Shown piece by piece: positions 1 through 4,715 of a DNA stretch of 4,715 nt. This DNA comes from a virus (taxonomy: Duplodnaviria > Heunggongvirae > Uroviricota > Caudoviricetes). The notes under the pieces are model-generated. The model made no database searches. It had not been told where the DNA came from and saw only the letters and a list, made by a program, of their open reading frames with translations. Every line of letters starts with the position of its first letter. Positions within the stretch are counted from its first letter, which is position 1. Location: the IMG/VR virus record IMGVR_UViG_2541047686_000001; one strand, given 5' to 3'. The translations under genes and the position numbers were made by a program.

Positions 1-303
1 TTCAGCATGAGAAATTGCCTCTGTGGGCCAGGTGGTAAGCACTTCCTGCTCAATCTGTTTAACGGCTTCATTCATGGAAGGCAGCTTTGTCTTCTTCGGA
101 TGGTTATGCCACAGGGACATCGCCACCAGAAACGCGCCGGTTCTGATGGCGTCTTCCACAGTAAACTTCCGGTTGCTGTCTGACTCCGCCTGTTCTGCCT
201 GCCGTTTCATCAGGGCGAGATGCTCAATACGCTGCAGGGCTGACAGTTCAGAAAGCGTGACGGTCACACCGTTATGTTCAAATGATTCGGTTTTCAGGAA
301 CAT
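1..303 (-). CDS. G: Tail assembly chaperone G, N-terminal 101 codons; 3' end lies beyond the window start
   Basis: Reverse-complement translation from the ATG at 303..301 gives MFLKTESFEHNGVTVTLSELS and the codon at 1..3 ends ...WPTEAISHAE, matching lambda gpG from memory. A 15-nt gap to the V stop with a GGAGA Shine-Dalgarno matches lambda V-G spacing. Not in the ORF track because no stop codon falls in the window. Confidence 0.88.
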   Translation of the reverse strand, partial: MFLKTESFEHNGVTVTLSELSALQRIEHLALMKRQAEQAESDSNRKFTVEDAIRTGAFLVAMSLWHNHPKKTKLPSMNEAVKQIEQEVLTTWPTEAISHAE

Positions 304-318
304 CGCTGACTCTCCGGA

Positions 319-1059
319 TTAACTGGCGGTGACGTTGATTTCTGCAACCGCAGCAAACTCACCATTACCGGATACGACCGGAATGTTGACCTTGCCTGCA
401 GCAACACCTTTCACGGTGATGGTCATACCACTGACCGACACGGTGGCTTTTGTTTTATCCGCAGACACCGCACGGAAGCTCTTGTCGGTTGCGCCCTCCG
501 GCTGGAATGCCACGGTCAGCGTGGTGCTCTGCCCTTTCACTACGGAAGCACTGGCGGGTGTCACCGTCATGCCGGTTGTCGCCGTCACCGTGCTGCGATC
601 TTCTGCCATCGACGGACGGCCCACATTGGTGACCTTCACCGTGCGGGTGATCACTTCCTTCGCCGTCACCGCCTTACCGATACTGCTGACCCAGCCGCGG
701 AACACATCGACCGTGCCGTTCGGGAAGCGGATTTTATAGGCTCGGGTATCCCCTTCATTAAACCACGCCAGCAGCGCCTGCTGCCCCTGCTCTCCGGGCA
801 TCCACGCCAGCGTGAAGCTGGTATCTCCGGCAGATTTCTGCCCCTGTCCGGTCGCGGTCCAGTCCGCATCTTCATCATCGAGATAACTGTCGTCATAGGA
901 CTCAGCGGTCAGTTCGCCGGGCGTCAGGTCTTTAACTTTAGCCAGACGCGACCAGTCAACGTCTGAAAGCGGGTTCGCATAAGGGTCACCGTTCCCCTTA
1001 TAAACCCACAGTGTGGTCCCGGCCCCTTTCACCGGTGCCAGAGGATTTGGTGTTGGCAT
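319..1059 (-). CDS. V: Major tail tube protein gpV (246 aa) with C-terminal Ig-like domain
   Basis: ORF 319..1089 translation from [22 protein letters not shown] to the end matches lambda gpV. Start placed at the ATG at 1059..1057, 7 nt after the U stop as in lambda; the track's longer start at 1089 overlaps U. Stop TAA at 321..319. Confidence 0.93.
736..830. repeat. Copy 1 of a 95-bp exact direct repeat, internal to V (codons about 77-108)
   Basis: Base-by-base comparison shows 736..830 is identical to 4621..4715. The flanking bases 735 (t) and 4620 (g) differ. Confidence 0.95.
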
Positions 1060-1066
1060 ATCGTCC

Positions 1067-1462
1067 TCACATTTCATAGGTAATGACATAAGTCAGATCG
1101 GCTGAACTCCACAGGCCCGCATCATCGTCGCGCCGGTAGTCATAGCCACTGGCCACCATACTGGTGATCAAATCTGACAGTGCCGGGATATCGCTCATCA
1201 CCGGATAAATCCGGGACTCCATCCACGAATCCAGCTCTGAATCCGGCACCTGAGCAGGCAGGAAAACTTCAATATGCAGCTCCGCCTGCCAGGTATCACT
1301 GTCCAGCTCTTCGCCCGTGTATTCAGCGCCGGTGAGATAAACGGCAACTGCCGGAAAATCCGCCTCATCAAAAACAGCGGGGCGACCATCAAAAAACGTC
1401 GCCCCGGTGTCATGCTTCTCCAGTGCATCCAGTACGGCTGCACGGAGTTCAGTATGTTTCAT
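1067..1462 (-). CDS. U: Tail terminator protein gpU (131 aa)
   Basis: Translation [31 protein letters not shown]... matches lambda gpU in length and sequence. Its ATG (1462..1460) overlaps the Z stop TGA (1461..1459) in an ATGA arrangement, as in lambda. Confidence 0.94.
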
Positions 1463-2037
1463 CGCTTTATTACCATCCTCAGTTGATGCTGCAGCGCATA
1501 GCCCAGCTCTTTCGGAAGACGCTCACGCCGTATCCGCTCAATATTCTGTTTAAACGCCGTGGTCAGCGGCACCGCCATCGGAATTTTCACCACATCAATG
1601 GGGTAACGATTTTTCCCGGCCACACGCTGCATAACATGCCAGCGGCCATTTTTCAGTTGCTGAATAAACGCGCCGGGAATACGACGGTTTCCCACCACAA
1701 GCACGCTGCCGCCACCTTTCAGGGCTGAACGCTGCCCCTTTTTACGACGCCTGCGTCGGGACAGGACAATCCGCGCGTTACCCAGCTTTATTACGGGCAA
1801 ATCCCCCCGGTTAACCCTGATTCTGGCCTGCGGATTTTTGACCGTGGCCCTTTTCAGCCTGGCCCTTTCCTTTACCAGTTTCCGGCGTACCTTTGTCTCA
1901 CGGGCAACCTGTGACGCCGACTGCGATATCGCGGATGAAGCAACGCGGTTAATGGCCATTGCGGCGGCACCGGGCACCGCCGTTCTGCTGATACGGCTGA
2001 GGTTTTCAACGGCCTGCTCAAGACCTTTTATGGCCAT
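1459..2037 (-). CDS. Z: Tail completion protein gpZ (192 aa)
   Basis: Translation MAIKGLEQAVENLSRISRTAVPGAAAMAINRV... matches lambda gpZ at 192 aa. Shine-Dalgarno AGGGGG lies 4 nt upstream of the ATG at 2037..2035. Confidence 0.94.
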   Translation of the reverse strand: MAIKGLEQAVENLSRISRTAVPGAAAMAINRVASSAISQSASQVARETKVRRKLVKERARLKRATVKNPQARIRVNRGDLPVIKLGNARIVLSRRRRRKKGQRSALKGGGSVLVVGNRRIPGAFIQQLKNGRWHVMQRVAGKNRYPIDVVKIPMAVPLTTAFKQNIERIRRERLPKELGYALQHQLRMVIKR

Positions 2038-2048
2038 ACATCCCCCTT

Positions 2049-2402
2049 TCAGCGGCGACGGTTAACGGCAGGCGGTACGCCCCGCCCAAGCCAGAGATGA
2101 CAGCTTCCGCCATCATCCGGCGAAATCCGGTCTATCCAGAAGTTTTCCTCACCGATGGTCAGCGTGTCGCCGCGCCGCAGCTGCCGCACATCATCAGTCC
2201 GGACAAACAGGAACGGGCTGGAGCCTTCAACGCGCACGCCCTGTCCGGCATAGCTGATATTTTCAGGATCATCAAAAACACCACGTATCACAGCACCGGA
2301 CTGCTCACCGGATGTCATGGTGGCTGACGTTCCCATGTACCCGCGTATCGTTTCATCGGCGCGGGCAATGGCAGCATCGAACAGGTTATCGAAATCAGCC
2401 AC
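2049..2402 (-). CDS. FII: Head-tail joining protein gpFII (117 aa)
   Basis: Translation MADFDNLFDAAIARADETIRGYMGTSAT... matches lambda gpFII at 117 aa. The start codon is GTG (plus strand cac at 2400..2402), preceded by GGGAGG with a 5-nt spacer. Confidence 0.92.
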   Translation of the reverse strand: MADFDNLFDAAIARADETIRGYMGTSATMTSGEQSGAVIRGVFDDPENISYAGQGVRVEGSSPFLFVRTDDVRQLRRGDTLTIGEENFWIDRISPDDGGSCHLWLGRGVPPAVNRRR

Positions 2403-2413
2403 AGCGCCTCCCG

Positions 2414-2809
2414 TTATTGCATTCTGGCCAGGCCGCGCTCTGTCATTTCAGCTGCCACACCGGCAGAGACACGGAACGCCGTTCCCGGCAGCACAAATGC
2501 CACAGCCTCATCCCGCGTGGCGTGAAGTGCATCAGTATGCAGCGTCACCAGTGCCACAACCGTGACCAGATCAGCCGTATCAGTCACGGTATCCGGCTGC
2601 GCTGATACCACCTCATTTTCATGTCCGGTCAGCGCATTTTCCGGGCTGACAGATGTGTCCTGACCAGCAGCGTCATCCGTGTCATCAAGCTCCTCTTCCA
2701 GCTCTGCCACACGGAGTGCCAGTTCTTCTTTCGTCCCCGTCAGGCTGACATCACGGTTCAGTTGCTCACCCAGCACCTGAAGACGGGCAATCAGTTCATC
2801 TTTCGTCAT
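2414..2809 (-). CDS. FI: DNA packaging / head assembly accessory protein gpFI (131 aa)
   Basis: Translation from MTKDELIARLQVLGEQLNRDVSLTGTKEELALRVAEL... matches lambda gpFI. Start placed at the ATG at 2809..2807, which has a GGAGGAG Shine-Dalgarno (plus 2813..2819) upstream; the track's longer ORF to 2848 would run through the intergenic hairpin. Confidence 0.9.
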   Translation of the reverse strand: MTKDELIARLQVLGEQLNRDVSLTGTKEELALRVAELEEELDDTDDAAGQDTSVSPENALTGHENEVVSAQPDTVTDTADLVTVVALVTLHTDALHATRDEAVAFVLPGTAFRVSAGVAAEMTERGLARMQ

Positions 2810-2812
2810 GGA

Positions 2813-2819
2813 CTCCTCC
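2813..2819 (-). promoter_or_regulatory. Shine-Dalgarno sequence for FI (GGAGGAG)
   Basis: Plus strand ctcctcc at 2813..2819 is GGAGGAG on the minus strand, 3-5 nt upstream of the FI ATG at 2809. Confidence 0.6.
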
Positions 2820-2830
2820 ACAGAGAGAAA

Positions 2831-2848
2831 ATGGCCCCGAAGGGCCAT
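2831..2848 (-). promoter_or_regulatory. Candidate RNA stem-loop just after the E stop codon: 7-bp stem with a UUCG tetraloop, followed by UUUUCUCUCUG and the FI Shine-Dalgarno
   Basis: Plus strand atggccc(2831..2837) cgaa gggccat(2842..2848) is a perfect inverted repeat. On the mRNA it reads AUGGCCC-UUCG-GGGCCAU, beginning 2 nt after the E stop. Confidence 0.35.
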
Positions 2849-2850
2849 GA

Positions 2851-3876
2851 TTACGCCAGTTGTACGGACACGAACGCATCAGGGTCAGCCAGCAGCATCA
2901 GCGGTGCTGACTGAATCATGGTGAACTCACGCGCCGGATCGCCGGTGGTCACCCAGTTTTTCGGGTAGCGGGCAGAGGCGTTAATACCTTCGCGCTGTGC
3001 GTCCGCATCCTGAATGCAGCCATAGGTGCGCAGACCGCGTGCCTGAGTGTTCCCCAGCACCATCGTGTTGTCCGGCAGGAAGTTCTTTTTGACGTCGTTT
3101 TCCACGTACTGTCCGGAATACACGACGATCGCCGTATCGCCATACATCCCCTTATAGGACACCGCTTCGCCCAGATCTTTTACCGCTGTCTCCAGCTCGG
3201 AATGAGAGCCGCGACGGGTATCCAGCTTCTCCTTGACGGCTTTGAAGGAACGGAACAGCGCCCAGCCTTTCGGATCAAACACGATGATATTCACCACACC
3301 GCTGGCGTTCAGCGCGTAGGCTTCGATATCGTCGGTCGGGTCATACGTGGACTTGTCACGCTTGCTCCACTCCGTACCGCCGGACTGCGTGATGTTGTTC
3401 GCCACACTGCGGCCCATATCCACTTCAACCGGATCGAAGGCTTCACCGGTCATGGTATATTTGCCCTTAAGCACGGCAGAAACGGCCTGCATCTCTTCGA
3501 CCTGAGCAATGGCCAGCTCTTCGTCTCGCATGTTCTGCAGAATGATGCGACGGCGGCGGTAAGCCGGGTCCGCCAGATTCTGTGGATCTTCATCCGGCAG
3601 GCGACGCAGGGTCATCTGCGGATTCACCTCATGCTTCGGCTTGACATATCCCGGTGTAAATTCAGAGGTGGAGCCGCCACGGGAGCGGATAACCTCACCG
3701 GAAACAATCGGCGAAACGTACAGCGCCATGTTTACCAGTCCCGGAATTTGTGAGAGATAGACTTTCTCCGTGGTGAAGGGATAGCTCTCACGGAAAAAGA
3801 GACGCAGAAACAGCGGATCAAACTTAAATTTCTTCTCATTTGCCGCCAGCAGCTGGGCGGTTGTGTACATCGACAT
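2851..3876 (-). CDS. E: Major capsid protein gpE (341 aa, HK97-fold)
   Basis: Translation MSMYTTAQLLAANEKKFKFDPLFLRLFFRESYPFTTEKVYLSQIPGLVNMALYVSPIVSGEV... to ...LLADPDAFVSVQLA matches lambda gpE. The 1026-nt length equals lambda E. Start at the ATG at 3876..3874; the track's upstream extension uses a non-ATG codon (cac on plus at 3901..3903). Confidence 0.95.
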   Translation of the reverse strand: MSMYTTAQLLAANEKKFKFDPLFLRLFFRESYPFTTEKVYLSQIPGLVNMALYVSPIVSGEVIRSRGGSTSEFTPGYVKPKHEVNPQMTLRRLPDEDPQNLADPAYRRRRIILQNMRDEELAIAQVEEMQAVSAVLKGKYTMTGEAFDPVEVDMGRSVANNITQSGGTEWSKRDKSTYDPTDDIEAYALNASGVVNIIVFDPKGWALFRSFKAVKEKLDTRRGSHSELETAVKDLGEAVSYKGMYGDTAIVVYSGQYVENDVKKNFLPDNTMVLGNTQARGLRTYGCIQDADAQREGINASARYPKNWVTTGDPAREFTMIQSAPLMLLADPDAFVSVQLA

Positions 3877-3889
3877 AAAAAAATCCCGT

Positions 3890-3914
3890 AAAAAAAGCCG
3901 CACAGGCGGCCTTT
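3890..3914 (-). terminator. Candidate intrinsic-terminator-like hairpin in the D-E intergenic region: GC stem flanked by an A-tract and a U7 tract
   Basis: Plus strand gccgc(3897..3901) acag gcggc(3906..3910) preceded by aaaaaaa(3890..3896). On the mRNA it reads AAAG-GCCGC-CUGU-GCGGC-UUUUUUU, lying upstream of the E start at 3876. Confidence 0.3.
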
Positions 3915-3931
3915 AGTGATGAAGGGTAAGG

Positions 3932-4264
3932 TTAAACGATGCTGATTGCCGTTCCGGCAAACGCGGTCCGTTTTTTCGTCTCGTCGCTGGCAGCCTCCGG
4001 CCAGAGCACATCCTCATAACGGAACGTGCCGGACTTGTAGAACGTCAGCGTGGTGCTGGTCTGGTCAGCAGCAACCGCCAGAATGCCAACGGCAGCACCG
4101 TCGGTGGTGCCATCCCACACAACCAGCTTACGGGTGGAGGTGTCCAGCATCAGCGGGGTCATTGCAGGCGCTTTCGCACTCAATCCGCCGGGCGCGGTTG
4201 CCGTATGTGCCGGGTCACTGTTGCCCAGCGGCTGGTAATGGGTAAAGGTTTCTTTGCTCGTCAT
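3932..4264 (-). CDS. D: Capsid decoration protein gpD (110 aa)
   Basis: Translation [110 protein letters not shown] matches lambda gpD. Start at the second ATG (4264..4262), 9 nt after the C/Nu3 stop as in lambda; the first ATG at 4270 sits directly against the GGG of the Shine-Dalgarno. Confidence 0.94.
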
Positions 4265-4273
4265 AAACATCCC

Positions 4274-4620
4274 TTACACTGGTGTGTTCAGCAAATCGTT
4301 AACGGCATCAGATGCCGGGTTACCTGCAGCCAGCGGTGCCGGTGCCCCCTGCATCAGACGATCCAGCGCAGTGTCACTGCGCGCCTGTGCACTCTGTGGT
4401 GCAGCTGCCAGAATGCGGCGGGCCGTTTCCACGGTCATACCGGGGGTTTCGGCCAGCACGCGTGCCTGTTCTTCGCGTCCGTGAGCCTCCTCACAGTTGA
4501 GGATCCCCATAATGCGACTGTTTTCTGCCGCAACCGCTGCGGTGATCTGCGCGTTCACGTCCGGCTGCGCCGCGCTGGCGTTCTCGCCCTCCGTCGCTTG
4601 CACCACCTCAGTAACGTCAG
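4274..4620 (-). CDS. C: C-terminal portion of the overlapping C (prohead protease) / Nu3 (scaffold) frame; N-terminal part is absent and the frame is cut at the repeat junction
   Basis: Translation ...[109 protein letters not shown] matches the shared C-terminus of lambda gpC/gpNu3. Stop TAA at 4276..4274. Beyond 4620 the sequence is V-derived and this frame hits a stop at 4640..4642. The track's start at 4606 is an internal GTG, not the native start. Confidence 0.82.
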
Positions 4621-4715
4621 ATAGGCTCGGGTATCCCCTTCATTAAACCACGCCAGCAGCGCCTGCTGCCCCTGCTCTCCGGGCATCCACGCCAGCGTGA
4701 AGCTGGTATCTCCGG
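4621..4715. repeat. Copy 2 of the 95-bp exact direct repeat (displaced V fragment); it runs to the window edge so true length may be greater
   Basis: Identical to 736..830. Abuts the truncated C/Nu3 frame at 4620|4621, where collinearity with lambda breaks. Confidence 0.95.

Follow-up and report, generated by a model that had tools for sequence, protein, structure and literature searches.

A 95-nt direct repeat at the end of a lambda-like Escherichia coli contig most likely reflects a library or assembly artefact

The stretch of DNA analysed here (4,715 nt, referred to as the window) closes with a second, exact copy of an internal part of the tail gene V, placed next to a truncated C/Nu3 gene. 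According to our analysis, this repeat with its junction is most likely not a biological feature. The junction 4620|4621 is very likely an artefact of library preparation or assembly, of whatever kind, and not a feature of the bacterial genome; as its specific source we propose a circularisation junction of a mate-pair (jumping) library, which we regard as probable. The artefact reading is the best supported one because the repeat forms the last 95 nt of a contig that borders a gap of 3335 N.

The repeat finder detected a single long repeat family in the window, consisting of positions 736-830 and 4621-4715. As described in the first-pass annotation, the two copies have the same orientation; they are 100% identical with a spacing of 3885 nt, which was confirmed by script. 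Since the second-longest exact direct repeat in the window has 14 nt, and the chance expectation for such 95-mer repeats in the window is about 7e-51 (both by script), the repeat is real and far above chance. Its assignment to V codons 77-108 was confirmed.

The match between 736 and 4621 cannot be extended leftward by a single base (script): position 736 is preceded by ...GGATTTT and position 4621 by ...ACGTCAG. Beyond position 4620, the reference phage reads CCTGCGAAGC, the window ATAGGCTCGG. As the flanks at 736, 4621 and 4620 all differ, the join 4620|4621 is blunt, with 0 shared bases on either side, and the absence of microhomology noted before is thus confirmed. It links C codon 325 (of 439) to V codon 108, so that a truncated C/Nu3 indeed abuts a V-internal fragment. 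In terms of geometry, position 4620 is connected to position 736 on the same strand, end to start, over a distance of 3885 bp. When the V frame is read across the join, it continues through 21 out-of-frame codons in C and then reaches a stop.

Positions 1-4620 are collinear with Escherichia virus Lambda_2E9 (LR595860.1) with 0 mismatches, in agreement with the earlier statement that the window follows the lambda late operon up to this base. Megablast against phage records yielded 100% identity to natural lambda-like coliphages (Lambda_2E9 LR595860.1, Lambda_ev203, 1H12 and others), and the full-window phage match covers just 4620 nt of the phage record. The gene order, on the minus strand, is G', V, U, Z, FII, FI, E, D, C' (Table 1). 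Gene coordinates were carried over from the annotation of LR595860.1 (the annotation of our locus L001 shifted by 1500). The truncated G gene is called as a 101-aa product with a PF06894 match in the scaffold KE698887.1, from which the window derives.

Table 1. Genes, repeat copies and join in the 4,715-nt window
Feature	Position	Strand	Remarks
G, 5' part, tail assembly chaperone, codons 1-101	1-303	-	cut by contig end
V, major tail protein, 246 aa	319-1059	-	PF16461 and Big_2; holds internal repeat copy
Internal, collinear copy of the 95-nt repeat	736-830		V codons 77-108
U	1067-1462	-	intact, identical to Lambda_2E9
Z	1459-2037	-	intact, identical to Lambda_2E9
FII	2049-2402	-	intact, identical to Lambda_2E9
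FI	2414-2809	-	intact, identical to Lambda_2E9
E	2851-3876	-	intact, identical to Lambda_2E9
D	3932-4270	-	intact, identical to Lambda_2E9
C/Nu3, 3' part, S49 protease and scaffold	4274-4620	-	codon 325 to stop; collinear to base 4620
Blunt join of C codon 325 and V codon 108	4620-4621		no microhomology
Tail, 95 nt, exact copy of 736-830	4621-4715		contig end, touches gap of 3335 N

The source contig was located via two end-specific products, the truncated G of 101 aa and a 110-aa ORF whose start lies shortly inside the C fragment. The window proved to be one whole contig of the 3.79-Mb draft E. coli scaffold KE698887.1 (GCA_000456165.1), with N-runs on both sides; its 4715 nt correspond to positions 9892-14606 of our scaffold excerpt L004. 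Directly before window base 1 there are about 1280 N (L004 14607-15886), and directly after base 4715 there are 3335 N (L004 6557-9891), a run that stops right where the last bases of the window begin in reverse complement (CCGGAGATACCAGCTTCACG...). The repeat thus comprises the terminal 95 bases of the contig and adjoins the larger of the two gaps. The ends of the neighbouring contigs (in Nu1 and in H) align collinearly with the intact relative L002 up to the N-runs, and the base-1 end of the window is collinear with the reference phage LR595860.1. Foreign sequence is therefore present at one of the four contig ends that flank the two gaps. The first-pass annotation had proposed to inspect what follows position 4715 in the source and to take a junction that appears only at a contig end as a sign of an artefact. 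We found the tail to be the last 95 nt beside the 3335-N gap, and what follows it is this run of N, not readable sequence. Past the join, the scaffold accordingly provides 95 nt and 3335 N, as against some 3790 nt for the remainder of a duplicated unit plus about 4805 nt of upstream genes.

The accession block of GCA_000456165.1 is probably one of E. coli isolates of the Broad Institute that were assembled with ALLPATHS. The tail length of 95 equals 96-1, i.e. K-1 of ALLPATHS-LG, the presumed assembler of GCA_000456165.1. On the basis of this length, the sized N-gaps and the accession block, we presume that the assembly originates from a K=96 de Bruijn (unipath) graph in the style of ALLPATHS-LG. 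That the gaps were given definite sizes (3335 and 1280 N) also shows the use of a long-insert library for the assembly.

ALLPATHS-LG builds its unipath (de Bruijn) graph at K=96 from 180-bp fragment pairs and approximately 3-kb jumping pairs, with a spread of 2-10 kb and 101-base reads, and it fills gaps in the unipath graph with jumping reads "ignoring their pairing" (PMC3483556). During preparation of jumping libraries, circularisation ligates the end of a fragment to its own start (PMC3158087, PMC3441570, PMC3483553). In the case of the window, blunt ligation of a sheared fragment spanning 736-4620 (3885 bp) would have joined position 4620 to position 736 on the same strand. A read from the ~3-kb jumping library, or a patch built from such reads, would then supply a path across the junction, and the unpaired use of jumping reads for graph gaps may be the route by which the chimera entered the contig end. 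In a K=96 graph, adjacent edges share K-1 = 95 bases, and a path running into sequence that is present elsewhere therefore stops exactly 95 nt into that sequence. The true continuation, comprising C codons 1-324, B, W, A and the rest of Nu1, would reside in the unassembled gap.

Several features of the join conform to this proposal. A blunt join without microhomology matches the ligation of end-repaired fragments and hence fits a circularisation event, and the 3885-bp span falls inside the range of 2-10 kb given for jumping fragments (PMC3483556). The K=96 overlap would explain the anatomy of the tail, its length as well as its location at the contig end, without proving an artefact; the same would be expected for a real junction, so that it does not discriminate if taken alone. 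For a random chimera in a genome of 5 Mb, such strand, order and a span of 2-10 kb would occur in about 1 in 1000 cases (an estimate made without a tool). For this reason, two realistic alternatives are left, a junction from the jumping library and a local duplication that is genuine, and we judge a random chimera unlikely in view of the specific geometry and span.

On the other hand, the proposed mechanism has its own difficulties. A single 101-nt read falls short of containing all 95 junction-spanning 96-mers, so that patching or the participation of several reads must be assumed. Moreover, assemblers normally discard chimeric k-mers of low multiplicity, and patchers usually join unipath ends; that position 736 was such an end is an assumption. 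Compared with what is expected of a mate-pair junction chimera with K-1 overlap, the window agrees in the blunt, same-strand, end-to-start join, the 3885-bp span, the contig end, the sized gap and, provided that K was 96, the tail length, whereas the survival of the chimeric read in the error filters, as well as the assembler and the libraries, are inferred here. A similarity also exists to false duplications at the gap edges of draft genomes, where duplicated sequence likewise lies directly beside an N-gap. Those usually repeat the adjacent contig end, whereas the copy in the window originates from 3.9 kb inside the same contig.

The sizes of the two gaps provide a further, albeit modest, argument. 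With the intact relative L002 as ruler (gene tables and alignments), the second gap measures 1280 N instead of the expected 1908 nt (-33%). The first gap plus tail amounts to 3430 nt, versus 4805 nt expected for an unduplicated prophage (-29%) and about 8595 nt for the first gap in the case of a tandem duplication (-61%). Because the bias is then consistent across both gaps, an unduplicated prophage fits better than a duplicated one. This evidence is modest as it assumes the hidden segment to be as long as in L002. As a separate observation, both flanking gaps are roughly 30% shorter than the corresponding L002 segments, suggesting a systematic underestimate of gap sizes in the assembly GCA_000456165.1.

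We also searched for independent occurrences of the junction, using a 195-nt query that consisted of 100 nt of the C fragment and the 95-nt V tail, and requiring that one place cover at least 80% of it. By megablast, no such place was found in 5,426 complete E. coli genomes, among 50,697 phage records or among 72,556 plasmid records. Partial matches to the query were present in 3,586 of the 5,426 complete genomes, with a median of two matching places (C-fragment or V-tail half) per E. coli genome and up to ten. Neither the 40-mer nor the 22-mer words of the junction occurred exactly in the collections of viral, genome-representative and metagenome contigs, and no recorded gene encodes the 52-aa product of the V-C junction ORF.

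An artefact might also have arisen outside the jumping library, either as a ligation or PCR chimera of the fragment library or as a mis-walk of the assembler in the tangled graph of co-resident lambdoid prophages. The position of the tail at a contig end beside a gap would fit this reading. Tangled graphs are to be expected given the median of two and the maximum of ten matching places mentioned above, and other assemblies break their contigs within a few bases of the same spot. A random chimera, however, would rarely (about 1 in 1000, the above estimate) produce a same-strand, end-to-start join over 3.9 kb, and a mis-walk in the graph needs shared k-mers, while the two sides of the join have no sequence in common. 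The junction-spanning k-mers must therefore have been contained in the reads. Taken together, we consider an artefact of this type unlikely.

With regard to the contig breaks, we observed that contigs of unrelated assemblies start near the C breakpoint of the window, at a distance of 1 nt in L009 (GCA_900480125.1 UCZM01000008.1) and of 14 nt in L010 and L011. Since the look-up used the exact 110-aa product, this near-coincidence is probably a selection effect; it would also agree with the idea that this stretch of C is a frequent divergence point among co-resident lambdoid prophages. The possibility that the breakpoint marks a polymorphic, graph-splitting site was rejected: an in-frame TAG at C codon 324 of relatives is 3 nt off and the contig start of the other assembly 1 nt off, so that neither coincides exactly with the breakpoint, and the closeness of the contig starts is again attributed to selection.

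A real tandem duplication in the prophage, with a 3885-bp unit reaching from V codon 108 back to C codon 325, is improbable in our assessment. The same sequence would result if a deletion had occurred between two prophage copies in tandem, or if part of the population carried the duplication or a 3885-bp circle. The geometry of the join, unit end to unit start in direct orientation, is the one that such an event would leave. A K=96 graph would collapse both copies and cut a real repeat at exactly 95 nt as well, with the contig stopping 95 nt into copy 2 and the remainder appearing as gap. Furthermore, the gene set would stay complete, with C to U provided by copy 1 and D to V by copy 2, and many reads carrying the junction would survive the error filters of the assembler more easily. 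Phage lambda packages DNA up to about 105% of 48.5 kb, and descriptions of tandem duplications in it date back to the 1970s; the phage enlarged from 46,702 by 3,885 to 50,587 bp would remain just inside this limit.

Against a duplication speaks that the junction is absent from all other collections searched (E. coli, phage, plasmid, viral, genome and metagenome), leaving this proposal of the first-pass annotation without independent support. Joins lacking microhomology are unusual for RecA-independent duplications in E. coli, the unit size lies within the jumping-library range, and the gap in the scaffold would have been underestimated by about 61%, versus 33% for the neighbouring gap. In addition, the first V copy would be cut at codon 108 and extended by 21 out-of-frame residues, which could disturb tail assembly, and a duplication is unstable without selection. 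Compared with the lambda tandem duplications known from the genetics of the 1970s, the window agrees in that a later map position is joined to an earlier one, in the unit of a few kb and in being packageable. It differs in that the record holds just 95 nt in place of a second copy, and in the lack of microhomology, the missing independent occurrence and the poor fit to the gap. There is a small chance that the isolate harbours, either clonally or in a sizeable part of its cells, a lambda-like prophage whose head and tail genes (D to V) underwent a packageable 3.9-kb tandem duplication by a homology-free join. If true, this would represent a natural case of tandem duplication in lambda, a type of event known for a long time, and be of modest interest.

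A deletion scar in a single defective prophage, with a V fragment left beside a truncated C, is barely conceivable: truncated-C junctions do occur elsewhere, e.g. in L005, where a module starts from about C codon 312 after Mu-like tail genes, but the coding strand of the window has V (map position ~9.2 kb) before C (~5.4 kb), an order that no simple deletion can give, and the same contig contains V in full as well as each of the genes between C and V in intact form. In its simple form, confined to one collinear prophage, the deletion considered in the first-pass annotation is therefore rejected, because V is joined upstream of C against the map order. From the three readings offered there, the artefact is the one that gained support, owing to the contig end beside the 3335-N gap.

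Related C loci showed some peculiarities of their own. An in-frame TAG at codon 324 of C (S49 protease/scaffold) was found in several lambda-like prophage or phage contigs (L002, L003, L006, L007 and L008). In L002 it occupies positions 9983-9985, equivalent to 4622-4624 of the window and hence located just past the join. Due to this TAG, gene callers report C as two pieces, a peptidase of 323 aa and a C-terminal part of 110 aa. The exact 81-mer around the TAG is absent from the complete E. coli genomes, the best match having 98.8% identity. The lineage may be defective, the stop may be suppressed or read through, or the TAG may stem from an amber mutant of laboratory origin. In L005 (ENA ERZ27287817 k141_50749, ~9866-9990), the lambda-like C'-D-E...J module starts abruptly at the codon given above, directly following Mu-like baseplate and tail-fibre genes and a DUF4376 gene. 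This junction, whose breakpoint differs from that in the window, may be genuine (a mosaic or a scar) or may result from mis-assembly of the metagenome.

Finally, L003 (1-7444) and L011 (1140-10212) contain an element with genes for an integrase, AlpA, a D5_N primase, SSB and a second AlpA, which also encodes a 346-aa capsid-E-like protein and a 113-aa homologue of the decoration protein. It adjoins lambda-like head genes, namely after C'-D in L011 and before a Nu1-like gene in L003. The element is reminiscent of a phage-inducible island that encodes a capsid and lies next to or within a lambda-like prophage.

In the case of the window itself, the value of the finding lies mainly in quality control. 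Windows cut at the N-runs of draft scaffolds may end in short foreign tails, and such tails at contig ends can mimic duplications or rearrangements. Two quick checks are available, namely whether the anomaly is located at a contig end and whether its length equals K-1 of the assembler. If performed before any biological reading, they prevent structural variants or gene fusions from being reported on the basis of such tails.
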